From the NCBI GenBank assembly GCA_017499595.2, contig CM039003.1, forward strand, positions 3,534,001 through 3,598,000: 64,000 nucleotides of DNA, read 5' to 3'. This DNA comes from Psilocybe cubensis (taxonomy: Eukaryota). Under the pieces are notes generated by a model. It did no database searches, was not told the DNA's origin, and saw only the letters and a list, made by a program, of their open reading frames with translations. Positions 16,400-64,000 of this stretch are shown here, piece by piece. Position 1 is the first letter of the stretch, and each line of letters starts with the position of its first letter. The translations under genes were made by a program, and so were the position numbers.

Positions 16400-17004
16400 C
16401 TTCACCGCTGTTTTATAACTTTACTACACATTGCAAAGTCTAAGAAACATGTATTACCCACGGTATGACCAACACGAGAGCTTTCATCGTGTTTATTTAC
16501 TCTGAGGATCATCTCAAAATTTCGGCATTTTCCACCCATTCCGCCGGCTTCATATTCTCAATCAACCATCTACACAGCCTTGTGTACTGTATATGTACCA
16601 CAGAAGGTCGATAACGCTTAAAACAGCTCTAACACGGCCCCCACTTATGTGTTTCCTCCTGGAAATGCTCATATTGCAACTGGAATTCACCAAACTTCTG
16701 GGAAACTTCGAATCGCCGTGACGACGTTATATTTAGCTGAGCGCTGTTAGCCTAACCTGAACTTGGAATGGTGCAGAAATAACGCGACTGGAATGAGCTG
16801 GAACGATGTATCGGGGGAGGAAGATGATATTGACCTTTGAGTATGGTATGATTTTCTGGGTTTTGATGAACAGTTTGATCTCCCTTGTATACGATGTACT
16901 GATGCCACCGCTCTTGACCGCGAACCACATCATTGAGTGAGGGTTTTCTTGTTTCTTTTTTGTAGCACCACGCTAACGATGCTCTGCAGATTCTGATTTG
17001 ATTT

Positions 17005-43989: not shown

Positions 43990-45158
43990 AACAGCGGTGA
44001 AGTGATACCAATGCCCTGCCGAGCGTGTCAGGCAAAGCGGAGTTTGAATGTCCTTGACAACAGCAAGGACAAACAACGCGACTCTTGTCGTCTTCCACCA
44101 CCATCCACGACCGTGACCCGTCTCTTCCCCCAGCCACTCAAACGACAACAGAAACTCCGCAATACGCGACTGGGGGGATGGGTCGTAGGATACCAGGGTC
44201 TAAGCACAGAGGAGGGGGGAGTGGCATCTAGGTGAATGGTAATGTTTGTGTTTTTTTTTTCGCTTTGGCGCCTGGAACCGACACTGCGGGAATACTGCAA
44301 GCCTCCACCTCCATCTCTATCACCCTCGTTTCCCCACTGCACTGGAACACATTTTGCATCGACGCCAGTGCAGCAACACCGTGTCCATATGACAGTTGGT
44401 GTGCTTCCTGCGTCGTGACGGATGATGAAGTTTGTGCTCTCCAGTGCAGTGGAAGGATATTCACGCGTTTTACGCTACCCCGTTTGTACGATGTCGCGTT
44501 CGACATGGACGCCAAGCATCTCTCATCCGGTTTCATCCGTTTGTTGGAATCTGCGGTTATATCAATGCTGGTGAGTCAGGTTACTTCACACTTCACGCTC
44601 GTTCTCTATACCACCATTCCGTTGATATTTTGAGGACATACTACCCTCAACCTCGTGTTTACCCCCAACTCACTCCCCTCCATGTTCTTCGATTTTTGCA
44701 CACATCTATGTCGTGTTATTTGCTAGGCCAAAGGCAGCGCAGCACAGGGTTTCATGAGCTCCATTTGGTTTGATGCACACCACAGCGATCTCGAGAGCCG
44801 AGTTCTAATACACCTTTAAGACTGTTGTTGTCAGGATGGGCGTAGACGCAGGCGCGGGCATGAGCGGGGTGAATATGAACCACGCTGATGCCTTCCCCAT
44901 CTGCACTCCACCTCAACAGGTGCATGTACTCCCTATCCAATTGCCCGCTTGATTATGCACTCCACATTCTCCATCACCTCTACCAGGAACATCTTTCCGT
45001 CTCACCATCCTTGTCTGTGATGGTGTCATCCCCACACCCTCCACAATGATCTCACATGTGTCGCAGGGTGTTACTACGATGACGCTTAGGATGCTCCCCG
45101 TCCCCGCTACGTCGCATATATCCACTTAGACGTCCAAGGGCAGTGTACAGATGCTTAT
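43990..45158 (-). repeat. Dispersed ~1.2-kb repeat, copy B (inverted; carries the empty site for the TIR element)
   Basis: Inverted match to 13903-15120. Its minus strand reads ggtatcaCTTCACcgctgttt with no insertion. Confidence 0.9.
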
Positions 45159-47048
45159 GTGTATGGGTGGACACGCTTACCGTTTAATGCTCAGCGACAA
45201 CGATAGTGTCGTGTACTGTCAGCTCGATACGCTCTTTTCTATGCCCATTGCACTGGTTTTGCAATGTGTGTATATTTGCACCCTCCCCATCTCCATTGTG
45301 CACTAATATCCACATCCCACTTCATATTCCAACCACCCCCGGCCAATAAATCGTTCCCTCCGTACTCCCGACACCTGCACGACCTCGTCGCAGGGCATAG
45401 CGTCTTCGAGCAGGTAGATTCGCACTCAGTTGGAGTGGCCCTCGTTTAGATCTAAGGTCCAAGGTCTAATTAGCTTCATTTCTAGTGTTACTCCACCACC
45501 GCGTCGAGTCGCATCATGGGTGTTCCTTCGCATTGCATCGCATTCGTGCATATCGTATCCCATGGCTTCTCCTTCTTCCCATCCCATGCCTTGAACGACA
45601 TCATAGCAACCTTGGCATTCTGTTGCTTGTCATTCCCTGTCTTTGGCCGACTCGCTCTGCATCTTCAGTTGTCGTTTTTCGAGCTTGTCACCCACATCTC
45701 CATATCCGTGATTTCGAAACCGGATTTCGAATGTCGTGTCACATTACACATCCGACCCTGCTTGTTACGTTTTCCTTGCAAGTCGGAATGTTGATTTGAA
45801 ACTGGATTTTAAGCACTTAGACTGCAAACATTAGAAGCTTGAGTATTGATTTCGAGGTGGGAGCTTCGTACTTTCTTTGAGAGGTGTCAGATATAATTAG
45901 GCTTGTTCTATACACAACGAGACTGAGGAATGCAGAAGACAGACGACATTTGCTGGGCTATTGAGGTTAAAGCTTTTCATTTCCGTTCAATGCTTACCAT
46001 CCACTGTTTTTTGGAATTTCTATTGCTGTTTCTGGTTTTCCATATGCGATTTTCTTGATTTTGTTTCATCAAACTTGTTTCTTTTCTTGATTTTTCCGGT
46101 TTTGCACTTCCTGTACCGTGTACGAAGTTGGAGTGTGCGAGTGAGTCCCCACATTGGGGCAACGTTTCTTATGACACAATTTTCCGTTGAAAATGCGAAG
46201 TGTCTGGCTTGAGATTTCGGTCACTACAAAAATAGCAAGGTTAGAACCTTAGTACGTAAATCGGTGTCAGGTTTCATAATGAACTACTTGGTCGTTAGTG
46301 CATACACCCTGAGTCGAATAACATACTTTGGTGTGGTTGTACTGCGCCCTAGGCATACTTTAGTATCAGATGGTTTTCTTGTAAGTAATGTAGTACTACC
46401 CGGATTACATGAACATATATACCAAGTCTAATTCCCTTTCGCAAAACCGTTGTAATCATTTCTCAAATTTCTTTGTTTCCAACTTATCCCGGCTGCTTCG
46501 GCTTTAAAATAATTCGTATAAATGTACCGGAAACACCCACAGCAAGACATATACTGTGTTGCTATGCTTTGCCATGGATAGGCCAATATAAAATCAGTTT
46601 AATGTTCAATTTTCTGGAATTATTTTGCCCTTAAATATCTGTTGAAATACCTGCTTTAGGTAAGCCATCTTCAGAGAAACCACCCTAAGGCAATACCAAC
46701 ATGTATACTGTTGGTTTTGATAAAACCACGACTTGACCACGGCTTTACCACGACACCAGATTAAATTTACCACAGTCTGTGCTAATTTTATCAGAATCCT
46801 GGGTAATAGGCTGTTCGCACACTCAAAATGTAAGTACTACAATGTAAGAAAAGCTACAATGTAAGAAAAGGTCCGAAACTAGTGAGTACAACTCCATTTC
46901 TGAGTGTTCGCATTTTCAATGGAAAATCGTGTTATAGGTACAACTGCTTTTCTCACGTTTTTATTTATTCTCTCGCAGGACTTCTTCTCTTATTAGAACG
47001 TTGATTTTCTATACGTTAACCACAGGACTGCTTACAAGCATACTGGCT

Positions 47049-47082
47049 GGGGGGTTTAGGGTTTAGGGTTTAGGGTTTAGGG
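47049..47082 (+). repeat. Interstitial telomeric array: G6 followed by (TTTAGGG)4
   Basis: Read directly from the sequence. Confidence 0.95.
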
Positions 47083-47084
47083 TG

Positions 47085-47120
47085 GGAGCAAGCACCGAGC
47101 GAAGCGAGGTGCGAGCGACT
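47085..47120 (+). other. GA-rich DNA hairpin with GCGAAGC mini-hairpin, copy 1
   Basis: GCACC-GA-GCGAAGC-GA-GGTGC, conserved in copy 2 at about 63866-63900. Confidence 0.7.
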
Positions 47121-47148
47121 TGTTTAAACTGTGAGTTAAATGGAAAGA

Positions 47149-47213
47149 AGCCAGAGGGCTGTTGGGGGATCCCAACAACCAGCCCTTTCGTCTTTATAGA
47201 CTCTTCAGTGGCT
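47149..47213 (-). ncRNA. Type I hammerhead ribozyme, copy 1
   Basis: Minus strand: AGCCA CUGAAGA GUCU-auaa-AGAC GAAA GGGCU-gguu-GUUGGG-aucc-CCCAAC-AGCCC UC / UGGCU. All core nucleotides and three stems are present. Predicted cleavage after CUC, between 47154 and 47153. Confidence 0.93.
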
Positions 47214-47907
47214 ATTCTTAGAAGGAATGTTCTAGACATCCGATGACAGCGCGTGAAGTGATGCTGCGCAGCTGTCATGTATCTTACCGACTATCACAAA
47301 TCTGTCAATGTTTATTGTCAAGTTAGACAGGTCTCTGATGAACAGAGTGTCACGGGTCGATGTGGCACATGGTAACCTGTCAAAAGTGGATCCAACACTT
47401 TTGTTCTTTGACATCGTGGGTTATTGACTGTGATGTGAATCACATGGATATAGAGTACTCTGGTTACGTGGCTCCGAGTAACCGCGACATGGGAATATTC
47501 ACATGTCTAGAGTATAAATAGCTTACCTGGGTCCTTACCTAACAATCAAACAATAGACTGATTGATTGTTGTGAATCTTAATTGGACAGTTCATGATCCG
47601 GTCCATCAAAAATGTTTCCACGGTACTAAGGAACTTTTCCCGAAGTACTAAGTAACTTTTCCCATGTACTAAATTAGATCCGGCCCTTCACAATCACATG
47701 CCGTTCGGAAGTTCACACGCCTACCTTACTTCCTAAGCTTATTCCCCCCCAAAGGGGGGGCCTTCGTTGCATTGGGCCTCCTGTTCAGAATTCCTGAAAT
47801 CTGATGCCAGATTCGGATTTCTTGACCCCAAAAACCCCCAAATACACTTTCAAAATATTTTATTTTGTACATATGGAGGTGCTACGTAATTAAATGTGTA
47901 TTTTACC

Positions 47908-48224
47908 GAGGCCGGCCTCCAAATTGATCGAGGCCATTGGAGGCCGGCCTCCAAATTGATGGAGGTCACTGGAGGCCGGCCTCCGTCTAAAAATAACTTT
48001 TGACAGGGACTGGAGGCCGGCCTCCGTCCAAAAATAAACAGAGCGAGGCATCCGAGGCCGGCCTCCATCTAAAAATAAACAGTGACAGGCACTGGAGGCC
48101 GGCCTCCGTCTAACAATAAACACGTCAAGGCCACCTGAGGCCGGCCTCGATTTGTACGCGCGTCGTACGTGCGAGTGGAGGCCGGCCTCCGCTCGTACGC
48201 GCCAGCAACTGGAGGCCAGCCTCC
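47908..48224. repeat. Array of 9 GGAGGCCGGCCTCC-type palindromes, mostly ~41-bp spacing
   Basis: Copies start near 47908, 47939, 47971, 48012, 48054, 48094, 48137, 48177 and 48211 (last is a variant). Confidence 0.9.
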
Positions 48225-49164
48225 AGTGTGGGTCCCAACCAGATAGGTCACGTGAATGTACGCGTGTCGTTGTTGGTTTACTGCTCGTCGCCGCCTGTCG
48301 CTGCCCCCACCACCTTCGCTCGCCGCCCACAATGACACGCACATTGCTGCGTGTTGTTGCACTGCCACCCCCGCGCCTTCGCCGCCGCCGCCGACTCCCC
48401 CACCCCGCCGCCGCCCCGCCTCCACTTGCCGCCCACAACGACTCGCGGCAGAGGAATCGTTTGTGTTTGTTTGTATTTGCTCACACTATCCCTACCCGCT
48501 CTTCCGCTTTCGCTCATTCTCCTCCGCTGCCGCCTCTTCCTCCCGGCACCCGTACTCACAGCAAACAACGGTGGCCCGCCCGCCCCCGGCCCTGACATCT
48601 ACCAACAACTGCAACAACAACAGCAACAGCAGCACATCTCATTGCACGCCACATACGCAAACCGTTCCTCGCTGTACGACCACCTCTCACATCAGACCCT
48701 CAACACCCTCGAGCTGTTACTGCTGTTCTCATTGGCGCACGAGCGTGCAGGGTTTGCGATGCATATGTTTGGAATGTCCTGCCAAGTTGAGTAAGTACAT
48801 GCCTACTTCTCTCGTCACCGCCGCCATCCCATACCATTCCGTCGTCAAGGCCGACATCAACAACCGTGAGGGAGGGCCGCGGGAGAAGTGTCATGATATC
48901 CTTTTTGGGTTATCATGGCGGACAGTTGTAAGTTATCTACGCCGCTGACATTGCGCTTTTACCCTTTAGCACTTCAGCGTGTCTGCGTTTGGATGGGGTG
49001 GTGCGACCCATGTCCACTGCCAGTAAAGAGGTCAGTCATTTCAACAGCCTACATCGACACCCTGTTACCCACTGTTCGTTCTATCCTCCAGTTTCCTTCA
49101 ATGCCGCCATTACGCGTGTCGGGTGCGTTTTATGGGTGAGAGAAAGGCAACCTGGTGAGCGCAG

Positions 49165-49790
49165 GCAGATTGAGGGCGGTCTGGTAGGGACAAATTGCGA
49201 TGGCAAGCAACGACGAGCTGAGGATAGAGGGAGCGTGCTGGCCAGGTGCGTCAGTACTGTAAATACGGGTTGTGGAGATTTGTTTACCCTCGTCTCCTTG
49301 TTGGCAGTCATGCCAGCTTCCTTTCATTGTGTGTCTACACCATGAAAACAAATCCAACGCGGGCCACACAGCAAACGAAGGCGGATTGAGGGCGGTCTGG
49401 GAGGGGTGGGTTGCGATGACGAGCAACGAGTTGACGACAGAGAGGGGACGCTGGCTAGGCGCGTCAGTGCTGTCAATACGGGTGGTGGAGATTTTTACTT
49501 ACCATCGTTGGCAGTCGCGCCAGCGTCCTTTCGTTCTGTGCGTACACCATTAAAACGAATTCAATACATGGCAACACAGCGAGCGGGGGCGGTTTGAGGG
49601 CGGTTTGTGAGGGACAGGTTGAGATGGCAAGCAACGACGAGTTGATGATAGAGGGGAACACTGGCTAGGTGCGTCAGTGCTGTCAATACCGGTTGTGGCG
49701 ATTTTGCTTACCGTCGTTTCCTTGTTGGCAGTCGCATCAGCATCCTTTGATTCTGTGCGTACGCCGTTAAATCAAATCCGACACATGTGA
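49165..49790 (+). repeat. Three degenerate tandem ~210-bp units
   Basis: ttgagggcggt...agcaacga...gcgtcagt(a/g)ctgt(a/c)aatac...gttggcagtc recurs from about 49170, 49385 and 49593. Confidence 0.8.
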
Positions 49791-52751
49791 TGACACTCAC
49801 CGTAGTGTCGCGTTCAGGGGGCACGTTGCCGACGAGAGGCTGCGTCGTCAGCATTGCTCTCACGTTGAGCTGCGCAGCAATGAGCGGGAGGTGAGCACCC
49901 AGCGCGTCGTTCATGGAATGCAACTCACCATGGTGCATCCTTGAAGCTGTTCTGTCAATGTCAAGCATACCGTCAGCGCCGTTGTCAGAAGCAAATACAG
50001 CACGGCTTACCATCTCGAGCAACTTGCTGTACAGAGCCGGAAACAACGAGGGAAGCGTGGGGGAAGAGGTCCTTTGACTGACCTGAAGGCTGAAGAGGCA
50101 GGGAAGAAGAGGGGATGAGGGGATGAAGGATGCCAGCAAGGTGCGTACCCTTTATATACCCTGTCGTGGTTCGACTGTTACTAGTACGCCTGTTACATGT
50201 CGTAAGTAGGCCGAAAATACAGATTTTTTTTTCGTGTCGCTTGTTAGTGTATATTCGGGTTATGCGAGGTGCGATTGGTGTGTTGAGATTCGGAATTGGA
50301 TAGGTTTTCTTGCTTGAATGTTGGATTTGAGGTCAGGGTGGTATGGAATAGTTGAAGAAAATCATCGTACGTCTAATCTATCAAACCGAATACGACGTGA
50401 AATGCTCAACAGCAAGTGCTCGATAATGCATTCATTGAATTTCACTCGAACATCTAATAAAGATTTGAACACGAGAGGACACAAGTACGTTTTTAGTTAT
50501 CTTTAATCCTGAATATCTATACCAGAGTACATTTTTGCCTTGGAATACCCCTGAGCAGAGATAACGAAATAACATGAAATCTCTCAAAACCATCTTGAAA
50601 GTTGCAAAGCCCTCGATGACTCGGGAACAGGTACGTACACCCAGACCTCGAACTATACGCACTCAACACACAACTCGCGTTCTAGCACTCCCGGAATGCG
50701 GACACTTGTTCTGGAGTCAACACACGGAATACTCATCTTCTGCTCTTCTGCACAGCGACAAATTGGACGCCGTTGCTTCTGCTAGTGGATGTGCCGTTAT
50801 TGCTTAGCCGAGGGTGAGCGAGGGTGTTTGGGCTAGTACAGGGCACATGGAGCCGAGTTGTAGGGAAAACAATTGGAATGAGGTGCAATGCCGATTTGGG
50901 AGAGGAGGTGGAGGTGTGGTTGGGTCGGATTTGCTGCGGCAGTTGTAACATTTTGGCCGGGTGGGTGGTTGTGATTGTGCGCGTATTTCTCGTATGCCCT
51001 GTTTCAAGCAGACGCGCAGGGATACAACTGCACTGAGGTCATATTTCCAAGGTCTGTGTACTCTCTCTTCATCACTTGCTAAAGTAATCACCATCTTGTT
51101 AGGATGGTATGCCCCAGGAGATTGAGATTCACTGCAATGATGCGACATTTGGTGAGCATTGTCACCTTCTCATTTAGAGTTTTCTGGCTTGAGATACTTG
51201 CTATATTTTAGTGAGTACATTACATCACAAGATCGACCGTTCAACCGCGTTTATAGGTATTTATTTAGTTGTGGGAACAAGAGCGGGCGATGAGATTGAC
51301 ATGGGGGGGTGAGTATTTGTTCCATTACTTCCGAATCCGATATTGATATCCTTACTACATCTCTTCGTCTATTTAACCGTGTGGGTAAGTCTTCCACTTT
51401 CAAAGTGATGTAATAATATCGAACTGCCGCACCGAAATCTCCAGATCTCTGTGTCAGTGTTTCTACATGCCTTCGTCCCCTCTGCGCCCGTTTTAAATAT
51501 TCTGTATGATCCCAGCAACTCGGTACTGTGGGGATACGTCAAACATAATGTCGTTTAGGTCAGAAATCAAGCTAATATTGATTCAAGGATACAAACTCAC
51601 AATTCAGCATAGAATCCTCGCTCATTCATTTGTCATTCTTGCCTTGATTAAGCGGACTTTGACTGACTCTAAGGAAGCAGCTTCAACACAATCTACGGCC
51701 ATTTGAAGTTGAGTAACATTCATATTACTGCCAATTATTGTATTTTATTCCTCATTATTGTAGTCAAACCTATCGTACATCGATGTATAAACTAGCTACT
51801 AGTATGATAGACACATATATACATATCTATCATCTTGCAGACCTCGATAAAAGTTCAAAAATTCTAAATTTAAACAAGTTCTCCTTGAGTCCCAATGTAT
51901 TCATTCACTAGTGAATTCGCAAGAAGAGCATATTAGATTAGCCATGGAGACCCTGTAACGGAGTTATACCATAGTTTCAAACGCACCTAAACACAATACT
52001 TCGCCGCAATGATGCTGTGAGCCGAAGGAAAATTAGCACCACTCCTCCCCCCAAATCACGAAATTACACAATTTCAAACATTTGCTGCATCTAACTGACA
52101 TTCAAACATTGCATAAAGGAGCCGGGTACCTCCGAAGGCAAGATGTAAAGAAGCTGGATGCAAGTCAATCGAAGTTGAACATGTATAAAAACATTACATT
52201 CCGTTTAGACGCACCTGGGCACAAAACAAGGAAATCCGGGTCTGCCATGAGGATCCTGAATAAAATGAAATTATACATTGGAAGAGATTATGTGAGATAA
52301 AATAAACGAGTCACTCACACGGCATCCAGATGAAAATTGGGACTGGCATTCGTTAAGCGCCCAAAACGTCTCTAAGACGGTACTTTTATATATTTAACAC
52401 ATATCGTCTCTATTTCCCCAAACATCAGTGACAAAGCAGTGCATTAGGAAGGGCAGAGGGATAAATACATGATATACAGAGCTACATGCTATTCCAGCTC
52501 CAATTCCGCGTTTCTAGCGTATGTCCATCAGCAATACCGGGGCCAAGTAGGTAATGATCCGTAGTGATACGTAATTCTGTAGTGCCCATAGTAACGGTCC
52601 CATTTGGGTAACACACACTGATGTACCTGTAGCTTGGTACCAACGTGACATGGTACTCTGTAGTGATCTGTATTGTAACGCGAGTGCTGTGTAGCGGCGT
52701 GTAGCATGCTTACCATGGTCCATACCCCTCTGTATACAACTGACATACAAA

Positions 52752-52843
52752 TTGTAGCATACTACCACAGATTTGTAGCATGCTACCACAGATTTGTAGC
52801 ATGCTACCACAGATTTGTAGCATGCTACCACAGATTTGTAGCA
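52752..52843 (+). repeat. 21-bp minisatellite, about 4.4 copies (TTGTAGCATGCTACCACAGAT)
   Basis: Read directly. The unit contains the palindrome GTAGCATGCTAC. Confidence 0.9.
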
Positions 52844-53111
52844 CATCATAACACACTGCAAATAGGTACAAAGGCATATATAGTATCCACTTTCATTTGT
52901 ATAGTGTTGTGTGGCTATTCCTGCAAGTGCCAATATCACACTGAAAACCGAACCATTTTTGACTAAAATGGGCAATTTTAAAAATAGATAATCTATGTTT
53001 GGATCGGACCAAACATGTTTCTATTAGTAGATGCATAACTATTAATACGTGACGATCTAAATATGGTATCTTCTAATCCACACCCGGCAGCTGCCCCGCT
53101 CATTCACCCAA

Positions 53112-55853
53112 CTACCCTTCTGGACCGTAATCTAGTTCCTCCTGTGGGATAGAATGGAGAGTCATCCTATAAGGGTTGGGGGGGTTCTTCGTAGGCCTCA
53201 TAATAGCACTGATTATGGAGATCTAAATGATGCAAAGAAAGAAATGAATAAAAAAAGATACACACCATCCTTCCTCAGCCACTTCCCTACATAAGCGAGC
53301 CAAGCGAGGACCTTGGTTCAAGGTATCCTTCTCTGCCTCTGCTGCAACCAACATGCAGGCATCATACCTCAGGGAGTACTCCTCTCCCTTGAATTCAATA
53401 CCCGAACACGGACCACCTCTTGCAGGGTCAATCCCATCCCTCCACTCCTCAAGACAGTTGTGGATCTACAGCAAAATGCTTGTTAGCAAGGCAGTGCCAA
53501 TAGCAGGAGAGAAATCAGAACTACACAACTGGCCACAAGCGCAAATGCTTTGTGGGGAAGCGATGTCTTGAAGAAATCCGTCTTTGTCTCCAGACCTTTG
53601 ATGGGGACTGCAACCCCTTTTGTAGGATGGTAGAAGAAGTCCAGACAGATCTTCTTCACAAAAGGATGTCCAAATGGGACATTGTGATACTGGAAACAAA
53701 TCAATGAGTGGTAAGCCAGGTAAAATGGACGGCGAACTCACTCGGGTTTTGGCAACACCCCGGTGGTATTTACCATTGAGTAGCCAATATGCTACCCTGT
53801 CCTTGATGTATTCGATCTCCCCCATCTGATTTTCAAACATATTGGGGTTCGCGGCGATGACCTCCGACGGGACTTCGAGGCCATACGCATTTTTGACCAG
53901 GGGTCTGATCATCGTCTTCAGTCTTCCCCGGAAGGTTGACGCGTAGACAAATGCCTAATGAGAACAGACACGTTAGTACGATATCCTTAAAAGAACACGC
54001 TAAAAATATACCGTTACGGCGGTATTCCTGTCTAGGAGCGTTTTTTTCTCTGCAAAGTTATGTAAACCAATTAACTAAAATCACAGAAGACAGAACTTAC
54101 TATCAGGCAACACTTTATCCGTGTTCATTCTTTCAAACACGGTTACTGCCATCTTCACACATCCATCGGCGACTAATAAGTGATTTTCCCGAGTGGGAAA
54201 GGGGACCTCCTCTACTACATACAGGCACATCAGTTTGCGTGCAATTTTGAGCACATCTTTCCAGTAACCAGTAAAGGATGCAACTGAATGCTTGGATACT
54301 TCCCTAGCAGAAGAAGTACTGGACTTCTTATGAGCGATGTGTGCCTCACCAAGCACCTCATCATCGTCAGATGCTTCGTTGTTCTCCCTTGTCAAACCTT
54401 GGGATACGGCTCCTTGCGAAACAGCCGCCTTGCGCAATGCCTCAGGGCGAGGTGGCTTGTTCGCCCGATTACGACGACGGTGTTCTTGAAGAACATCCTC
54501 TACTTCCACAACCTATATCAATAATACATTAGCTAGACATTAAATACAGCAGAGAAATGATTACATGGGGGGAAGGCTGGCGGAGCAATGCCCTTGCTCT
54601 CCTCTCCTCTTCATCATCGGAAACTTCATCAACCACTGTCAAACATAGGTGGTAAGCAAACACGACATAAAGGTGGAGTTAAACCAACGCTGGGCAGCAG
54701 GCTCTTCATCATCTTGACCCGCGTCGTCGTAACCTTCATCACCGTCGACATATTGGAGAGCTTCTTCATCCCCAATATTCTCTTCATCAATTCCTTGCAT
54801 GCATTCGTCCCCTGATGCTTCCTCAGATCGCCTTTCACCGTCACTATCCCCCTCTTCCTCCTCCTCATCTTCCTCCTGCTCTATGCCTTCGTAATCTTGT
54901 TGCTCCTCCTCGTCTTGATGGCTGATGCTAGCCTCTTGGTGGGCGTTATAGGCTGCTGGATGCACTGGCTGTTGTACGGGGGCATGTTGTGTTACAGGAT
55001 GCACTGGTTGTTGTACGGGGGCATCGTAGTATTGGACAGAATTCTCTGCCGCAGGGGCAGCGTAACGCTGAACAGGATTTGCTGCGTGTTGTACAGGGCG
55101 CGGGACAGGATGTGCTGCATGTTGTACGGGGCGCGGGACAGGATGTGCTGGCTGTTGTACCGGAGCAGCGGGGCGCTGGATGGGGGCAGTGGGTCTTTGG
55201 ACAGCATGATCAAGCTCTGAGTGCTCCTGATTTCTCTGAGCTGCACGTTGGATCTGGACAGGAGGGGGGGCACCCTGAGATTGTCGTGGGCTTGGTTGGA
55301 CTTGTTGGACATCCCAAGGAGCAACTGAAGGCGTTGGCCTTGGTTGCATTTGAATAGGGGGACCTACATGCGACACAACGGTAACCTAGACGTGCTTGGA
55401 AGATAGCAAATTTAAGATTAGAACAGTAGACTCACCCCATTGCGAGGTTTCTTCAAGGGAGGCGCCATCTCATTTTCAGGCATGGCGCTAGTATCCACAT
55501 TGGCGGCCCTTGACTTCCTCTTCCCAGCCTTCTCGAAGTCAATAAAAATGATGTTAGATGTTTTCTCCTGCCGAGCATTTACTCCACCAAGACCACGGGT
55601 GCTTCGGATAGGACGGCCATTGGGGTCTTTTTAATAAGGAGTTCAGTGAATCTCAACAAAGAAAATGCTAGTACAGACCTGCTTCAGGAGCCTGAGGTGG
55701 CTCGTTTTCTGCCACGGAGCTCGGACCCTGTTCAACCTCTTGTCCTAGATGGATAAAACATTAAGTATGCGGATGTAATGAGGATATATAGATGATACCT
55801 TCAACCGTGGCATTGACAACCGCCTTTTTCTTTTTGGATCCTTTAGGTGGCAT
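53112..55853 (-). CDS. Large protein with Q/P-rich and acidic tracts and a C-terminal DUF6532-like domain
   Basis: Start MPPKGSKKKK (NLS-like), PVQ repeats, E/D tract, then WKDVLKIARKLM...VPFP, STFRGRLK, PFGHPFVKKICLDFFY and IHNCLEEWRDG. DUF6532 assignment is from motif recall, not a search. Confidence 0.7.
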
Positions 55854-56647
55854 ATTGGGCTGGTTTGACGGTTGTAATGCAGAAATAGAGACAAGGGGTG
55901 GTGAATTATGTCAAGCTACGATCCGGAGGTATGCGAAATTAGCCTCTTTTCAAAATTTAAGGCGACGGACATCAGTCAAAAATATATCGTGCCATATAGA
56001 AATTACAGGTACTGAAACAGTACCCCTATCTACTACAATATATCACATATACATTATAGTCAGATTCCATGTCCTACTTAGAGTTAAGTAAAGTTACATC
56101 TCAGAGGGGAAAAGACTGCACCTATCATGATCGCGGATTATCCTGAGGGTGCATTAGAATAGGTATTCCCCGACTAATGAGGGATACCCGTAGACGGGCG
56201 ATTTCGAGCTGGGTTTCAAACAGAAGATCTTCATTGGATTTATATGCTCGCATAATGTCGTCCATATAACAACGTAGCTCTGCCTGAACTTCTAGACACC
56301 TCTGTTCAGTGAGTTGAAATTGGTCAAGAGCCTTTTTAACGGCCTCTATGCCTTGATTCTAGAGGAAGGTGGATTAAAACATGAAAATAGACCTAAAACG
56401 AAGAACTCTGCCTCTTCGGGTATGCTAGGGAGGCGGCGACTTTGAGGTTGCGAAGCGTTGTTGCTATTGGAATGGTTCATGATAAAGATAGGCAACAATT
56501 TGGTGTGGTGGTGGTGGCTTAAGTTCAAGACGATCAACACATTACGAACCATTAGCACTGTTGATTGCCGAAATACACTTAAATAGAATGACATAAAACC
56601 CGTATATGTCTACAAGTCCGTGTTCGAGATACAAGTAATGCTGCACC

Positions 56648-59007
56648 CTACATATTTACAACTTTGACACCACGGGACGGGGGGAAGATTTGAATCAAAG
56701 ATGTTGTCGGAAAAGTTGGGAATGTATCACCGCGTTTCATACGAGTAACGGGATATTTATGTACAACGCAAATATCCTTGTCTATTGATCGTATCCTGAA
56801 TATAATCCCCATTGAATCGCCCTCAAGCGGTGTAACGAAGTCGTCCTTTTTTACAGGATGAATTGGAAACAACACTGATTTCGGTAATGTCAGTGTACGT
56901 CCCAGTAATGCTAGGTGGGCAGTATCGTCGGTAAGGCTGAGAAGTTCCATCGCCACTTGATGGTCGCCCTTGGATTTGTCTACGACTTTTAATCGTAATC
57001 CTTTCAGCTTATCGTATTTCGTATCTAGCCAGTGAGCGACGGTTGAGGGTAGTTCTGCGATTTCCACCGCCGAGTGTACAGGTATTGCTGAATACGGATT
57101 CCATGCAGGAGACAGAAAACTTGCTACTGTGGACGGCATTGGAGTTGCTCCACCAGAAGGCCCGGGGTCTTGAGCGGAATTTATATGTTCTCGGTTGCTT
57201 GAAACAATGTCAGTAAGCACCTGACAGTCAACGAATCAAGTGAAACCACATACTGTATAATTAAATGTGATATTTTAATACGTTCCACCCTCTGGTTACG
57301 AGCTTCCAGCTCAACGTCTGCAAAGCCGTCGGGGGTAGTGCTTTTAACGATGCCATAGTACCCCTTGAATGTATTATTCCCGACAACGATGACACTCAAA
57401 CCTATATAGACGTCGTTGTGGTCTCTTTCTCCAAGCTTTGACGAATGACGCTTTCGCGGGCGAAGAGTAGCATGGGCAGGGGGGACGTAGAATATGACTG
57501 TGTGGATGGGCACAATGACCTGAAAAATGTGTTGAACACTACTGAGACAAAGAGAATGACAGTTCACCTACTTCGCGTTCGTGCTCTGGGGCGATAATAC
57601 AAACAGATCTTCCATCAAAGTCTGACACCCATCCATGGAGATCTTTGTGATCCCCTTCAACGACTTCAACACTATCGCCTATCTGGAAAGCTGCACGTAG
57701 ATCGTGTAGTGCAACTGCTTGTGTTATACCTTGGGAGGGGATGTGCACTTCCACCTCAGCGTCAGAAACACTCTTGACCGTTCCAAAAAGACCTAAGTAT
57801 TCTCCACCAATAATTTTGACTCGATCATATCGTTTCAGTCGAGTCATGGAGATGGCTTTCGAGGCTTGCGCTAAGGTCTCCGTCGTTACAAATGGACACT
57901 CGCGAAATTGCTCCAACTCGGACGATGTTGGGAGGACATTGGAAAGATATTTGAGATCGATGGCGTCGAAATCCGTGATAATAAATCCATCCTGGAATAT
58001 CCTGTCGAGGTGCGATTTCTTGATGTTGTCCGGAGGTCTGGGGATAAGAACAACACTTTTCCGACCCTGGAATGTGAACACAAGGCCGGTAGCATTTGCG
58101 TAGGTCGTCCAAGCCTTACGCTTTCCAGCAACCTTGACCCACGATTGGTCTTCAGGGCGTGAGGGTGGGGGATGAGATAGGATCTCCATACATCTCTCCG
58201 AGGATAGCCTAACTAAATGTGTCGGATTAAGCTCTCTAACGAGGCAGGCTAACGTATGCGCATGTTGCATTGATGGCGCCTTGACGTAGATTCTCCCAGG
58301 AATTGAGGATTGAGCGAAGACAGACCGGGCAAGGATGATGGGAAATGTAGGGTTCGTTGACATCTGCATAATTTTGAAAGCGACGGCCTCTTCGCGTCCA
58401 ACCTATCACTCGTAAGGTGATCAATAAATGCTGACTGAAGACTTATATTATTTTTGCGTACCTTGCAACCTATTTCATACATGATATCAGTCGCGGAAGG
58501 CATATAATTATTATCACCAAGTCCTCCTGGTTGGGGATTGCCATATTTCTGTATAAGTTCTCGTGAACTAGATGGCTCTATATCATTGTCAGGACGAATT
58601 TTCATGCGTGAAGGCAGAAGCATGGGCAACAAATCGCTCCATTCATCAGCGTTATCTGTATTTTGCATGGCATGATATAGCCGAGAGTGTGCAACACGTT
58701 CCTCATCCTCAGAGTATTCATCGTTATCATTCACTGTATGTCAGAACCCATTAGCATCAGTACATATTGAGCAGAATATATGTAAATTATTGGAACATAC
58801 GTAGTTGGCCCCCTTCATAATCAAGCTCTTCCGAACTTTCATCATCATCGGAAACCGCTGCTTCAATGTCTATGAAGGGATTAATGTCCTGATTTTTTGA
58901 GATCATAATTAAATTTCCCTGAAGTTAGTGATTAGATGGAGGGTTGGATTAGTACACACTGTGCGGTTGCCTAGGCTGTCAAGTCGTCTGCGTTTATAAC
59001 TAGACAT
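56648..59007 (-). CDS. Divergent Spt5/NusG-family paralog (acidic N-terminus, NGN, several KOW motifs; no C-terminal repeat region)
   Basis: NPFIDIEAAVSDDDE, NGN-like YEIGCK/VGREEAVAFKIM...PGRIYVKA, and KOW motifs YDRVKIIGGEYLGLFGTV, FQIGDSVEVVEGDHKDLHGWV and IGLSVIVVGNNTFKGYYGIV...VELEA. Confidence 0.85.
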
Positions 59008-59432
59008 TGTGGGTCTTAAAGACTGTTAATCGATGTTCATCTCACTTAATTTATCATCTTAACTTGTGATAATTTATTTTTAGATACTACACAACCTATT
59101 ACTATGATAAGACGCTATGATGAACGGAAAGAGAAAACATATGGTGAGAAACACGCTATTTCCGGAGCGATTCTTTAGGGTAGGTTTCCCGTCCTGAAGT
59201 CACGAGTTGGTTAAAAAAACGCCCCCTTACATCAGAACTTGATTGTTTTTCTTTCCGTTCGTCATAGCGTAGTACCCCTCCCCATAGATTTAACATACAT
59301 TCTAATAAAATAGACATAGACAATACTCTAGACACTCTATAATAGTTTTCGTTCAGTTAAAATTCATCTAGTTGAAAATTTGAGACACCAGAAAAAAACA
59401 CACAAAAAAAAGTAAGTACCCAAAGAAATAGA

Positions 59433-62400
59433 ATGCAGGGTGAGACGTTGAAGTTTTGTAGTGCAAGCCCAGAAGATTTCCCCCATTGCCCGACTCCAAG
59501 CTGAAGAAATTCTGGCGTTTCCCTTCGAAACGCAGGTCGTTCGTCAGACTCTGGAAAACATGTTGCCAGAGTCGCACCCACTCCGCGTAGGTCTTAATTG
59601 GATTGCCATTTATGGTACTAATATCAAGTTTCTGTAGAGGATGGTGGATTTCCTCCGACGATATGAGGACTTCACCTTTTTGAATTACGATGTTTCATCA
59701 TCGAGCATGCGAGCGGCCATCAAGTATAGGCAAAGCTTGGCTGCCCTTCAGAACAGCATCGTAGAGACACCCTGCGTAACCTCGGCTACATGGGAGCAGG
59801 CGGGTAGCTTATTTGCAGCATACCGTCTACTCGATCTCGTAGCGTTGTGGCCAGCAGCCTTTGGACCATCGTTGCCGGTGACCGTGCCCCTGAATGAAAT
59901 ACAGGCCAGCACAGGAACTAAGGAAATATTTTCACGGTTCAAGGTATGCGATCATGAAGTCACTCAATGTTAATTCTTAATTTTCAAACAATTATTGTAG
60001 CTTGTAGATGACTTGAAGGACTGGCCGGCAATGCTCTGCTCTGCCAGGAAGCGCATCCTCAGAGCCGACTCTAAGTCGCACAGAAACATCAACACCCCTT
60101 CTATCAGTGACACGCCGTCATCCGCTTTCACCCAGGGCGGGCCCTCGGAATCAACGCTATTACTCTGTCTGGCGCGTAACCACTTCAAGGGTGTTGTGGG
60201 GAAAATAATCGGGAATGTGTACTGCGCCTCGCTACACTACCAAATCTTGTCAGGAATGCGCGGTATGAAGGACGATGAACACGTTCTACCAGACATTCCA
60301 ACGGACACGGCTACTCTTGCAAATCTCTAGTAAGTTTTCTTTCCTCTATTCATTGATACAATCTGCTCAACATACCCTAGTGCAAGCGGCCATCCTGATG
60401 CTGCGTTGTTCCTCTCAGAGGTCACGCCATCTCATTTAAAAATTCCTCTGCATGTCGCCCTTTTCATATCCCCCATCCTTCTTTTTGTGAATAAATCTTG
60501 GTATTCTAAGAAATGTGACCGGGAGCAGCTGCTTAAAGTAGGTGTATCCACATCCTCCCAGTTTAACTTGGATTAACGCACTCCTTTAGGCCTCAAAAGC
60601 GCTCGGTAATTGTCGCCCCCGTGTTCTGCGTGAAGTGGAGATGGAAATTTGGAAAATCATTGCAGCGCAAAATTGCGACATCCAGTCAGCCTTATATAAA
60701 CTTGTTATCTCAGACTACTGGATGGAATGCGAGCGGGTAATTGCACAAGATCCCGCGTTTCACTTTTTCATATGTGTGTTCTACGTACTGTAACAAAATA
60801 ACAATTTAAACTAATAATTGGCCAGCGTCAACAAGCAGCGCCGAGGTTACAGCAAATTCTAACCTAGCAAGGCGCAGCACTGAACCACACGGTAAGTTAT
60901 AAGCAAAGTCTGCGTCAATTACATGATTTAAATCCGTTTAAAACAGCTCAACTTCAGACCGTTTCCCATCATGGTGAAAAAACCACCTGTGAAGGGTCCG
61001 ACGCAGACGCGGAGGGTGACGATGATCACGAAGTGGACACGACGGAAATGGTCAGCATGGGTCAACGGGAGAACGGGGACAATATGGTCCCTACCTCAAA
61101 TATACAGCCTCCGGAAGACACGTCTTCAGTGGCTGGCAAGGATGTCAGCATGGGTCAACAGGAGAACGGGGACAATACGGTCCCTACCTCAGATATACAG
61201 CCTCCGGAAGACACATCTTCGGTGGCTGGCAAGGATGTGCCCACGGACGAGCAACCTGGTTTGCCGCGGAGTGATGATATTGGATCTGGTCTACTTCAGA
61301 CTGAGAATACTGGGCCCTCATCTGCAGGGGATTGTGAGATGAACGTCGATCCGGAGCAAGCTGATGTCGACCATCAAATGGAGGATGGTCCACATACCAA
61401 TGGTCCAGAAAATTTGGGAGATGGCGGGGCTGGACAAGGAGCTGAAGGGTCTTCTGACGAGGCAAATCGTATGTCGGAAGTTCACGAGGGCGAAAAGCAG
61501 GGGCAAGACGGAGAACGACCCGACGAGGAGAACCGAATGTCAGAAGATGGTGAGGAGGAAAGGCCAGACGACAGTTCGTCGGACAATGAGACCGAGAAGC
61601 AGGGGCAAGGGGATGTTCCACCAGTCCAGGAGGACAGAATGTCGGTCGATGGAGAGGGGGTAGGCCCAGAGCAAAACAATGATTCCTCAGACATGGAGAG
61701 GAATACATTGGAAGACAGCCAAGGCGAAAAGGAGGGGGAGAACGCACCTCCTGCTCCTCTTATTTTGAGGATTCCTCCTGTTTCCCAGATAAACAGGAGC
61801 AAAAACACCACGGCTGACTCCTCTCAGAAAGGGAAAGGGAAGGGCCGGCAGGGCCTTTCCAAGCGGCCTCCCAAACGCAAGCCGACGCAGGCTACCGACA
61901 CATTTGATTCGGACGACGACCTGTGTATTGATGTCGATCTGTACGACAGCAACACCACCCTTGATGTCGTCAGCACTCCGGAGAAGGTGTATGGCACCAA
62001 AGTTTGGTCCACCTACAACGGTCGTGGCCAACTTAAAAGTTTCTGCGTTGTTGCCCATGTAAGTCATTCTCGATATTGATTTTTTCGTCATTTATTTATT
62101 CTCCAAACAAGAGTCAAGCCGACGTGGATCGTGTTGAAAGGGTTCTGGAATTGGTCGAGAGTGACTACGTCGATGGAGTTCCATTGCACATAGCACGTCC
62201 CGAAGAATCATGTTTTGCGGTATTCGACCGCAGCACCACGAAATCCATGTATCTGATGGAGTCTTTCTCTGAAAGGAACGTCGTCCTTATGTCTCCTTCT
62301 CAAGAGGAGTCTATTTCAACTTGCTCCGACGAGTTCTACAGCCAGGTACGTCGCCATATGGGTGATATGACGAGCACCAGGTCAATCCAAGGTGTGTTTC

Positions 62401-63789
62401 CTCTTCGATGTTTTGATTTTTCTTTCTGCGTCTCATGCTAATGGCCGTAACAGATATGTCGACCATGTCGTCTAACCCCATCGAGAGGATTAAGTGTGGG
62501 TCCCTCTCTCAGGTCATGGAAGCAGCGAGGATGAAAGGCAAAAGAGGAAAGATCCTCAATGCCCTCAACATCCCTTTACCTCATGCAGGCGCTCACTCTT
62601 TTGACTTGAGTACTGAGGCGGCTGCTCTTCGGGCTACATCTGGTAGCTGGAAGTATAGTACCCCCGTCCCATTTGGTGATATGTCATGGGGACTCGTAGC
62701 TACAGAGGGGGCATTTTCAGATATCCATATCGATGCCAATGGTTTCTGTTCCTTCATCCAACCTCTTCATGGACTGAAGCTGTGGATTATCATGTATCCC
62801 AGACGGTTGGATGTTGACCTTTCTTCTGACCGCCGTGTATTTCTGGGAGACAAGCTGGATTACGGGGAAACGCACCACCAAGACTGGATTTACGAGGCGA
62901 TTGTTCTCGATAACCAGTCAGAACTGTATGTGATTTTTGAATGTCCTACCCATTTGATTATATTGACGCTACTTTGAAAAACAGCTTCATGAGACCGAAT
63001 ACTCTACATATGGCGTATTCTATCTCCTCAGTGGTTTGCCGTGGCGGACATTTTTACTCCTCCACTTCCTTCGAAGAAACCCTGACAGGAATCATTCACT
63101 GTTTTACCGCTGGATACAGGGCAACGAATACGAATCATTCAACGTCCCGATTTTTCCTGCAGCAAACCATACATTGGTTCTACAAGGTTTTGGTTGAAGG
63201 TGACAGCGACCCAGAAGGTATGAGGTTTTTTACCGTTTCCTACAAGATATCTGATTCTTTTCTTCTATTTTCTCTCAGATTTTTATGAAATGTACCATGT
63301 CCCATTCTACAGTACGCAGTCCGGATACTCGAGCTTGATAGCTCTGTGCGTGTGCATGATCTTGGCAAATGCGCTCGACTACGAGACCTATCGAAATCCC
63401 GATCAGATGTTCTCCACCAAGACTTCGGCACAGTTAGACGCATGGATGCGGTGGGATACCAACAGCCTGAGCGACGAAGAGCGCAAGGCGTGCATCTTTG
63501 CCCGTGGCGAAGCCTTGGCTATTCTAGAGTGGCTATGTCATCGCACGAAGTCCATCCACTACATGATTGAGACGGACAAAAACAAGGATGCACAAAATAT
63601 CATGGCGACAGAAAAGTTCCATGAAATGATACTTTGCCGCTATGCCCGTATGATTCTAGCCTACGACGCAGAAGCCAAACATAACAACATTGGTGGTGCC
63701 CCTTGCTGTACCGACACCAGTTTGCTTTTTGTCCAGCTTCAGGGCGTCTGCAGCGGAGAATTGAACAAGGTTATATGTCGCAGTATCGA
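59433..63789 (+). CDS. Large JmjC-domain 2OG/Fe(II) dioxygenase-like protein, 3'-truncated by telomeric repeats; start uncertain
   Basis: Multi-exon, with an acidic region at 61033-62079. JmjC core WGLVATEGAFSDIHIDANGF...GLKLWII (HxD) and FMRPNTLHMAYS...GGHFY (distal His). The last exon reads ...KVICRSIE straight into GGG TTTTAGGG. Confidence 0.8.
61051..61238 (+). repeat. 93-bp (31-aa) coding tandem duplication
   Basis: VSMGQ(R/Q)ENGDN(M/T)VPTS(N/D)IQPPEDTSSVAGKD occurs twice. Confidence 0.9.
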
Positions 63790-63866
63790 GGGTTTTAGGG
63801 TTTAGGGTTTAGGGTTTAGGGTTTAGGGTTTAGGGTTTAGGGTTAGGGTTTAGGGTTTAGGGGGGG
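63790..63866 (+). repeat. Interstitial telomeric array, 10 units (TTTAGGG, with one TTAGGG and one TTTTAGGG)
   Basis: Read directly from the sequence. Confidence 0.95.
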
Positions 63867-63932
63867 AGCGAGCACCGAGCGAAGCGAGGTGCGAGCGACT
63901 AGTTTAAACTGTGAGTTTGAAATAGAAAGAAG

Positions 63933-63996
63933 GCCAGAGGGCTGTTGATTGTTATCAGCAGCCAGCCCTTTCGTCTTTATAGACTCTTCAGTGGCT
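63933..63996 (-). ncRNA. Type I hammerhead ribozyme, copy 2
   Basis: Minus strand: GCCA CUGAAGA GUCU-auaa-AGAC GAAA GGGCU-ggcu-GCUGAU-aaca-AUCAAC-AGCCC UC / UGGC. Core is identical to copy 1. Confidence 0.93.
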
Positions 63997-64000
63997 ATTC

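Follow-up and report, generated by a model that had tools for sequence, protein, structure and literature searches.

Two co-oriented modules, each consisting of a (TTTAGGG)n array, a hairpin tail of ~71 nt and a minus-strand type-I hammerhead, lie 16.78 kb apart in the 64-kb stretch of Psilocybe cubensis DNA analysed here (the window), and raise the question of what the DNA between them represents. A sequence-only reading had proposed that a module and the DNA distal to it form a giant Terminon-like retroelement of >16.7 kb, with Spt5-, JmjC- and DUF6532-like genes as its cargo. The two modules on which that proposal was built are real, as judged from the sequence, the alignment of the termini and shuffled controls. 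Their layout of terminus, repeats, body and terminus equals that around canonical reverse transcriptase (RT) bodies, and anatomy alone fits a giant element too. The features of the region are collected in Table 1.

Table 1. Features between the interrupted DUF6534-like gene and the right-hand end of the window (PLE, Penelope-like element; CM, covariance model)
Feature	Position	Strand	Evidence or remark
DUF6534-like last exon	46938-47051 (ORF 46938-47066)	+	cut at ~47049-47054 by array 1
Interstitial telomere array 1	47052-47082	+	GGG + (TTTAGGG)4 at 47055-47082; G-strand pointing right
71-nt 3' tail, putative PLE terminus 1	47083-47153	-	3' of cleavage site; sequence, fold, metagenomic alignment
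Hammerhead motif, terminus 1	47145-47233 (helices 47145-47219)	-	predicted cleavage 47154/47153; Rfam sub-threshold, fold, CM
Non-coding stretch 5' of hammerhead 1	47234-47907	-	without Pfam, RT or telomere signal
Nine copies of palindrome GAGGCCGGCCTC	47908-48223		spacing 32-41 bp; 9 matches vs 0.08 expected
Three tandem units of ~210 bp each, GC-rich stretch	49146-49787		repeat analysis
DUF6532-like ORFs	53466-55385	-	Pfam 23.2 bits (cut-off 24)
Spt5-like gene, GT-AG introns	56651-59007	-	NGN + KOW domains (Pfam); tblastn
JmjC-like gene, introns	59560-63789	+	stop of paralogues 76 codons further on
Interstitial telomere array 2	63790-63862	+	GGGT, then 9 TTTAGGG + 1 TTAGGG at 63794-63862
74-nt 3' tail, putative PLE terminus 2	63863-63936	-	same hairpin as terminus 1
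Hammerhead motif, terminus 2	63928-64000, window end cuts motif	-	predicted cleavage 63937/63936; CM 124 bits

The telomeric arrays are confined to the two modules. The 14-mer TTTAGGGTTTAGGG has ten matches in the window and none in 100 shuffles, and a search of the 64 kb for telomeric 10-mers found none besides arrays 1 and 2. TTTAGGG telomeres are described for another strophariaceous mushroom (PMC8874372), and TTTAGGG is a plausible host telomere type for this lineage. Both arrays interrupt plus-strand genes, a DUF6534-like gene at array 1 and a JmjC-like gene at array 2. In the DUF6534-like exon, Pfam aligns positions 13-43 of the 80-position profile at 26 bits (E 2.1e-5), short of the 28.2-bit cut-off; the exon is chromosomal DNA proximal to the first of the healing events proposed below, and a regular-expression search, a weak test, detected no match to the rest of this gene in the whole window. 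At the other end, the JmjC-like gene is 96-100% identical to its paralogues up to 63790, after which the last 76 codons are missing. The earlier view that the distal end of the first unit is cut inside a gene and capped by telomeric repeats is thus upheld by a gene that stops at 63789 with array 2 adjoining.

The modules carry a second conserved component, the hammerhead. Positions 47052-47217 and 63833-64000 are 90.5% identical over 169 nt at a spacing of 16780-16783, in an alignment that reaches the window end. Both copies contain the complete core (CUGAAGA ... GAAA ... UC; type-I consensus CUGANGA ... GAAA ... UH) in an architecture in which helix I is open, helix II measures 4 bp and helix III is long, and the predicted minimum free energy fold of an 81-nt piece recovers the three-way junction. 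The minus-strand hammerhead of the sequence-only reading therefore stands, on a complete core and a three-way-junction fold in both copies, with Rfam scores below gathering. Within the tail of terminus 1, folding also places the 'GA hairpin', with a 5-bp stem, at 47092-47112. The 23-nt hammerhead core occurs exactly twice in the window and not at all in shuffles, and 94% of cells are paired in the named hammerhead structure versus 26-59% when it is slid, this structure having been assigned by hand and RNAalifold on 10 termini giving no hammerhead junction.

Covariance-based searches place the same sites at graded strength. Rfam at gathering thresholds returned 0 matches, the curated hammerhead-family score not being reached; below threshold, RAGATH-1-hammerhead scored 29.1 bits at 47149-47233 (gathering 56.3, E 0.0057) and Hammerhead_3 19.5 bits (gathering 48.5). 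A covariance model scored 139.7 bits at terminus 1 and 124 bits at terminus 2, scores that follow by construction because both window sites are among the 10 termini from which it was built; the next best score was 11.8 bits (E 0.46), and the model detected no third hammerhead site in the 64-kb window. The core helices are invariant and show no covariation (shuffles equal the observed value in 500/500), and compensatory change is seen in just 2 distal helix-III pairs of the termini alignment. From sequence and modelled structure, both termini are predicted to be hammerhead ribozyme motifs, which would be self-cleaving.

The kinship of these termini becomes apparent from metagenomic relatives. 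A metagenome scan with the hammerhead pattern recovered 12 loci, in seven of which a tail of ~70 nt and telomere repeats in reverse complement come after the hammerhead (CCCTAAA in L001, L005, L010 and L011; CCCTAA in L007, L008 and L012). Five of these seven encode ORFs of 859-1227 aa, all five with TMTDKNLG and YIDD motifs, and the 4.5-kb elements flanked by the module encode reverse transcriptases of 1183-1227 aa with the DKN motif of Penelope-like elements (PLEs). RVT_1 was matched in two of three scanned ORFs at 28.9 and 27.8 bits, just below the cut-off of 29.6, and no GIY-YIG endonuclease was found by Pfam in the scanned RT ORFs. The module lies on both flanks of the RT body in L001, L005, L007 and L011, the last of which holds a head-to-tail chain of elements. 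No differences separate the 35-nt hammerhead cores of three element families, the window core included, and the repeats match the host telomere type (7-mer or 6-mer). Window homology to the metagenomic elements is restricted to 47051-47219 and 63789-64000.

Because the identical module flanks RT-encoding, endonuclease-free metagenomic elements, the comparison supports both termini as 3' ends of Coprina-type, endonuclease-deficient PLEs, a known kind; on this point the earlier reading is borne out by these elements and by the literature. Endonuclease-minus Athena and Coprina elements attach to G-rich overhangs through reverse-complement repeats that adjoin the hammerhead, as set out in PMC8557442. 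The window shows the arrangement of a Coprina-type 3' end, in which host-type telomere repeats in reverse complement come after the hammerhead; G-strand repeats precede an antisense terminus, an orientation that fits a 3' end turned towards the centromere. Repeats between element and chromosome and head-to-tail chains are further shared features (PMC8557442 and PMC13159263), and Coprina elements of A. lentis occupy chromosome ends, flanked on either side by telomere repeats (PMC13159263). Unlike in these elements, just ~170 nt of each copy in the window can be assigned securely to the element, an RT is absent, and beyond terminus 1 come 16.7 kb of non-PLE DNA instead of an element body or telomere. 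Our literature searches returned no usable description of such elements in Psilocybe or Lentinula.

Within the interval, the absence of an RT, already noted from the letters, was confirmed by two approaches: Pfam found no RT family in any of the 39 ORFs scanned, out of 40 ORFs of at least 100 aa in 47000-64000, and tblastn with PLE RT ORFs as queries gave no match in the window. The non-coding stretch next to hammerhead 1 is probably a remnant of a PLE 3' UTR; in RT-bearing relatives this UTR spans ~870 nt, as in L001, with its RT ORF ending at 3656 and its hammerhead beginning at 4527. The GAGGCCGGCCTC palindromes may derive from a PLE UTR or from subterminal repeats of a DNA transposon. No telomere repeat that would cap a short PLE fragment at its 5' end was found between the two modules.

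The genes of the interval are of mixed orientation, with the Spt5-like and DUF6532-like genes on the minus strand and the JmjC-like gene on the plus strand, and GT-AG introns are kept in genes of both strands, at least three short ones in the Spt5-like gene. Spt5-like cargo had been named correctly: KOW2_Spt5 scores 51 bits alongside KOW and NGN (Pfam), and tblastn of P0023 and P0005 gave 91-100% identity, with no match between the Spt5-like ORF and longer proteins. The DUF6532-like assignment holds as a sub-threshold match and falls short of the Pfam cut-off; the ORFs concerned are probably unannotated or decayed, and one had 0 matches among 1.84 billion representatives. The JmjC-like gene has no Pfam match, and its putative JmjC identity comes from a high-scoring Atlas feature lead; the earlier assignment agrees with this lead and finds no counterpart in Pfam.

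The JmjC-like gene belongs to a 39-member family at >=90% identity. The 15 listed members of this cluster place the family on at least 8 P. cubensis contigs, and for 7 of these 15 the gene model extends directly into a Plavaka DDE transposase. In the paralogues the transposase (PF18759, 245 bits, Pfam) lies directly 3' of the JmjC-like gene, and DUF6830 is also present. Because the listed paralogue models continue into the Plavaka transposase, the JmjC-like gene is assigned to a DNA transposon, and by sequence comparison the right-hand 4.2 kb is a truncated copy of a high-copy Plavaka-family unit whose transposase is missing. The Plavaka-linked family has its own route of spreading at the DNA level; copies on one contig appear, from locus tags and accessions, to lie ~180-190 genes apart. 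At one other locus, on another contig, an Spt5-like paralogue (98% identity) stands beside JmjC-like and Plavaka genes (JR316_0004105-4109).

This unit resembles Plavaka elements (CMCT clade, EnSpm-like, Agaricomycetes) in being multi-copy and in having JmjC-like paralogues followed by the Plavaka transposase and DUF6830. It differs in that the window yielded no transposase (tblastn), no TIRs (5'-TGT..ACA-3' or 5'-CATCA..TGATG-3') and no TSDs; the left end was sought by visual inspection around 47.87 kb and at 59.0-59.5 kb, where the end motifs TGT and CATCA are too short for calling ends. Dioxygenase passenger genes are described for Plavaka in PMC12730594, those described being TET/JBP whereas the passenger in the window is JmjC-like.

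Together, these features are likely to reflect two telomerase healing events, each followed by addition of a PLE, with sequence of DNA-level origin caught between them. The chromosome would have broken within the DUF6534-like gene (~47049) first and within the JmjC-like gene (63789) second, and at each event the broken end within a gene would have gained telomeric repeats. An endonuclease-deficient Coprina-type PLE, whose RNA would end in the hammerhead, the ~70-nt hairpin tail and (CCCUAAA)n, could then attach, with the RNA tail pairing with the G-rich overhang and the overhang priming reverse transcription. Since the tail would be paired with the priming overhang, the 3' end of the element would come to lie antisense on the G-strand right after the repeats. 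DNA distal to terminus 1 would most plausibly have arisen by insertion of a DNA transposon into the terminal PLE, or by subtelomeric recombination or a break-induced copy that extended it. The 16.7 kb would comprise a short PLE 3' UTR remnant, repeat-rich DNA, the weak DUF6532-like match, the Spt5-like gene and the left portion of a high-copy Plavaka unit, and the second break would have cut the JmjC-like gene, the Plavaka transposase being lost with the distal piece. As a less favoured variant, PLE cDNA may have been captured at an internal break, with loss of the remaining DUF6534-like gene.

The giant Terminon-like unit of the earlier proposal, or a 5' transduction of similar extent, would require a long minus-strand RNA, comprising a Coprina-type 3' module with the Spt5-like, DUF6532-like and antisense JmjC-like genes, to be copied by an RT in trans onto a healed telomere, the copy halting at 63789 and telomerase capping it. 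The body does sit where RT bodies sit between termini, the arbitrary distal end with its telomere cap resembles 5'-truncated Terminons (PMC6431247), and an Spt5-like and JmjC-like block is present at a second locus, as this reading predicts. However, neither an RT nor a remnant of one is present in the interval, the genes there are of both orientations, and the Spt5-like gene on the sense strand of such an RNA retains its introns. The JmjC-like part belongs to a Plavaka unit whose widely spaced copies would be beyond the reach of a telomere-primed element, and a source locus with non-PLE DNA distal to its terminus would need a DNA-level origin anyway. A retroelement of >16.7 kb is thus not sustained by the data, and we regard it as very unlikely. 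Yeast Y' elements are subtelomeric blocks amplified by recombination, and a similar block, spreading by break-induced replication with the PLE terminus as its conserved proximal edge, would account for telomere repeats at both unit boundaries, for a unit 2 that opens with the same 170 nt and for the partial duplication on another contig at 98-99% identity. This explanation is unlikely, given that unit 1 stops distally within a gene and not at a conserved unit end, and that the termini differ by 9.5% whereas the gene copies differ by ~1-2% (protein level).

A small self-contained hammerhead element at internal sites, retrozyme-like or non-autonomous and with telomere-like repeats as its own tail, would be in keeping with family B loci, where unrelated DNA begins just ~1.5 telomere units after the tail, and with L008, where a 355-nt terminus fragment is followed by ~6.9 kb of other DNA. 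Against it, neither terminus has a second boundary or hammerhead nearby, no continuation of the interrupted DUF6534-like or JmjC-like gene was found on the far side, the window holds 4 and 10 telomere repeats, and the related autonomous elements are without endonuclease; such an origin is very unlikely. Retrozymes proper are likewise non-coding pieces of retroelements that carry hammerheads and need an autonomous partner, but they are short and bounded by two hammerheads, whereas the window hammerheads are tied to telomere repeats; with just two of them in 64 kb, 16.8 kb apart, identity with a retrozyme was rejected. Repeated PLE termini and telomere repeats could also have produced a chimeric join at one or both junctions, and metagenome contigs break at such termini, which are therefore hard to assemble. 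Gene model P0002 reads into the repeats, evidence from the same assembly and so not independent, and 8 runs, drawn from 3 studies, each contain 72% or more of the words sampled across 46001-56000, which leaves the junction itself unlocalised. Window words were found in 12 sequencing runs from 4 studies, with no RNA runs among those listed. An assembly artefact is given little credence.

Healing followed by PLE addition would make the window a fungal example of telomerase-healed breaks that were then extended by a telomere-primed Penelope-like element. The resemblance to the Terminons of bdelloid rotifers extends to the 3' hammerhead with C-rich repeats, the telomere-capped 5' ends and the host genes caught between neighbouring elements; in descriptions of Terminon arrays, 'host genes [are] often captured between neighboring TEs' (PMC6431247). 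The difference is that Terminons carry Athena RT and accessory ORFs, whereas the window interval is without RT in 47084-63789, its genes are of mixed orientation and its 'cargo' is a DNA-transposon unit. Conserved PLE termini can mark past chromosome-end breaks in agaric genomes, with the caution that an arrangement of terminus, repeats, body and terminus is insufficient to identify the body as a retroelement.

It is highly improbable that a portable Coprina-type 3' handle let an RT acting in trans copy >16.7 kb of upstream DNA-transposon and host sequence, introns included, to a healed telomere. If it did, such retrotransduction would enlarge subtelomeric gene blocks in P. cubensis, a fungal counterpart of Terminon behaviour, and the element would be, to our knowledge, the first giant telomeric retroelement outside rotifers. 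Literature searches for a giant telomeric retroelement in fungi found no case. On the proximal side of the interval, Pfam searches of ten ORFs from 1-47 kb identified a LysM domain alone.

The window contains two short telomere arrays, and about 170 nt directly after the first (terminus 1) recur after the second (terminus 2), with the copies spaced 16780-16783 nt apart. The match (47052-47217 versus 63833-64000) is 90.5% over 169 nt, which is the visible length only, as it reaches the window end at 64000. No further telomeric 10-mer occurs elsewhere in the 64-kb window, nor is a third terminus found there by a covariance model trained on 10 termini, both window sites included. The TTTAGGG repeats are plausibly native to the host, since the protein database names the proteins of the interval as Psilocybe cubensis and the related mushroom Stropharia rugosoannulata is described as having ~100-bp TTTAGGG telomeres (PMC8874372).

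Features of the two termini, the interval between them and the tail-bearing metagenome loci
Feature	Position	Strand	Description
Telomere array 1	47055-47082	+	(TTTAGGG)4
Telomere array 2	63794-63862	+	9 TTTAGGG units and 1 TTAGGG
Hammerhead helix I		-	GCCA/UGGC with distal extension
Hammerhead core		-	CUGAAGA
Hammerhead helix II		-	GUCU-AUAA-AGAC
Hammerhead 3' part		-	GAAA, long helix III, UC, then cleavage site
Predicted cleavage sites	between 47154 and 47153; between 63937 and 63936	-	
Palindromic repeats	47908-48223		nine copies of perfect palindrome GAGGCCGGCCTC, spacing 32-41 bp
GC-rich stretch			three ~210-bp repeats
Tandem repeats	52731-52856		five copies of 21-bp unit TTGTAGCATGCTACCACAGAT, partly palindromic
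DUF6532-like ORF		-	weak Pfam match
Spt5-like gene	56651-59007	-	
JmjC-like gene	59560-63789	+	introns kept; cut by array 2
CCCTAAA repeats after tail	L001, L005, L010, L011		
CCCTAA repeats after tail	L007, L008, L012		

Each copy of the terminus is a predicted textbook type-I hammerhead, followed after the cleavage site by a tail of 71 or 74 nt containing a hairpin (5-bp stem) and then (CCCUAAA)n. The window has two occurrences of the 23-nt core, and 100 shuffles have none. As many as 94% of cells are paired under the author-named structure, versus 26-59% with partners slid. The core helices provide no covariation (shuffles equal the observed value in 500 of 500) because they are invariant, and RNAalifold finds changes of both partners at two distal helix-III pairs, in 5 of 10 sequences. 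An Rfam search of the window gave no match at gathering score, with RAGATH-1-hammerhead (29.1 bits versus 56.3) and Hammerhead_3 (19.5 bits versus 48.5) both sub-threshold, so it is motif, fold and conservation, and not a curated threshold, that underlie the ribozyme call.

In a single search of metagenome contigs, the hammerhead pattern identified 12 loci, seven of which carry the hammerhead, a hairpin tail of ~70 nt and reverse-complement telomere repeats. Five of these seven encode ORFs of 859-1227 aa, all containing TMTDKNLG and YIDD motifs; the DKN motif is typical of Penelope-like elements (PLEs) (PMC13159263). Among three ORFs scanned with Pfam, two match RVT_1 just below cut-off (28.9 and 27.8 bits versus 29.6), the third has no match, and GIY-YIG is absent from all three. 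In L001, L005, L007 and L011, the covariance model finds the terminus module flanking the RT body at either end, and L011 runs on into a 5'-truncated second copy, forming a head-to-tail chain. The window and both metagenomic families share an identical 35-nt stretch around the hammerhead core, with divergent flanks. The same 3' module is described for Athena, Coprina and Terminons (PMC8557442, PMC6431247). Given these descriptions and the module shared with RT-bearing loci, the window termini are, as judged from sequence, 3' ends of Coprina-type endonuclease-deficient PLEs; Coprina is preferred to Athena on the basis of the fungal host and single-ORF layout.

The remaining five loci differ, L002 being a bare match. 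Complete hammerheads with the core CUGAAGAGUC...GACGAAAGGGC as in the termini lie in unrelated context at L003:2498-2555, L004:3790-3847, L006:110-167 and L009:1659-1716, lacking tail or telomere repeats and scoring 31.4 bits with the terminus model. At L008:734-1088, a 355-nt PLE terminus fragment of family B, one of the two metagenomic families, is separated by ~6.9 kb of non-PLE DNA from a further GGGTTAGGG motif at 7958-8085. Like the window, L008 has foreign DNA on the distal side of a telomere-primed terminus, the second such case.

The sequence-only reading had described two co-oriented copies of array, hairpin and minus-strand hammerhead, of endonuclease-deficient Penelope-like kind, and noted that no RT is visible. 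The arrays and the match between termini confirm the former, the identical module flanking RT ORFs that lack GIY-YIG supports the assignment, and RT is indeed missing: no RT family was found among 39 scanned of the 40 ORFs of at least 100 aa in 47000-64000, and tblastn of 33 ORFs of at least 120 aa from the seven loci matched only the terminus itself in the window. Its claim that the distal end of unit 1, the 16.7 kb between termini, is cut inside a gene and telomere-capped also holds. The JmjC-like gene aligns at 96-100% with its paralogues up to 63790, they extend 76 residues past the cut, and the annotated model P0002 reads on into the repeats of array 2. Before array 1, a DUF6534-like exon ends at about 47049 (profile positions 13-43 of 80; Pfam E 2.1e-5, below cut-off); a regex search, a weak test, did not find the rest of the gene.

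Within the 47.2-56.6-kb part of the interval, 674 nt of non-coding sequence adjoin the hammerhead of terminus 1 and plausibly represent a PLE 3' UTR; that of L001 is about 870 nt (ORF end 3656, hammerhead start 4527). The GAGGCCGGCCTC repeats resemble subterminal transposase-binding repeats of CACTA-type elements, but may instead belong to a PLE 3' UTR. Short GT-AG introns are retained in genes of both strands. Of the cargo proposed earlier, Spt5 is substantiated by NGN and KOW domains. The DUF6532-like ORF does match Pfam, but under the cut-off (23.2 bits versus 24), with no match among 1.84 billion representatives. The JmjC label is a lead only, from an Atlas feature (score 0.94) and 10 of 10 best family matches being JmjC/cupin, with no Pfam family found.

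The family membership of the JmjC-like gene is the decisive point on the nature of the 16.7 kb. Its cluster at ≥90% comprises 39 members, all named P. cubensis, and the 15 members listed lie on 8 contigs. Seven of these 15 models continue from the JmjC-like part past the window's cut point into a Plavaka transposase (245 bits) and DUF6830 (152 bits); the window itself has no Plavaka match. The Plavaka lineage of DDE transposons belongs to the EnSpm-like CMCT clade and carries dioxygenase passenger genes in Agaricales (PMC12730594). Same-contig copies lie 181 locus tags (JR316_0011323 and JR316_0011504) or 194 accession numbers apart, so some of them are probably remote from every chromosome end, which would rule out telomere-primed insertion for those. 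The Spt5-like cluster is rarer, with three members at two loci: one is the window, and at the other (JR316_0004105-4106) models for JmjC-like (4107-4108) and Plavaka (4109) proteins lie alongside in the same order. A second copy of at least 56.6-63.8 kb therefore exists elsewhere, consistent with additional cargo in a variant of the transposon or with segmental (subtelomeric) duplication. The P. cubensis Plavaka-family unit (window 56651-63789; P0001-P0023) is very young and high-copy, on at least 8 contigs. Its ~1240-aa JmjC-like gene precedes the transposase, which is followed by a cyclin-like ('pas1') part. Speculatively, chromatin and transcription-factor passenger genes might aid the transposon's escape from silencing.

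These observations are best accounted for if breaks were healed by telomerase and then joined by a PLE on two occasions, trapping DNA-level sequence in between. Three routes could have placed non-PLE DNA distal to terminus 1: nested insertion of the DNA transposon into a terminal PLE, subtelomeric recombination (break-induced or other), or an internal break at which PLE cDNA was captured and DNA was deleted. The trapping of other DNA between elements would not be new in kind, as host genes in Terminon arrays are stated to be 'often captured between neighboring TEs' (PMC6431247). The earlier proposal that the whole 16.7-kb body is one giant Terminon-like retroelement would explain its canonical position between termini, its arbitrary, telomere-capped distal end and the partial duplication of the block. 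However, it requires an unspliced RNA of >16.7 kb and no RT, and its source locus would still require a DNA-level origin. With the JmjC-like family linked to a Plavaka transposase, we consider this proposal very improbable.

The chromosomal portion of the window includes an ORF at 9609-10118 with two LysM domains (59.5 bits), the only Pfam match from the ten longest ORFs in 1-47 kb. A 1.2-kb inverted duplicate (13898-15120 versus 43997-45163, 86% identity) and smaller related pieces at 15121-15282 and 16232-16399 are dispersed repeats in this portion. Just upstream of the cut DUF6534-like exon, 30-nt inverted repeats (46170-46199 and 46907-46936, 90%) enclose 707 nt that may be a MITE-like insertion.
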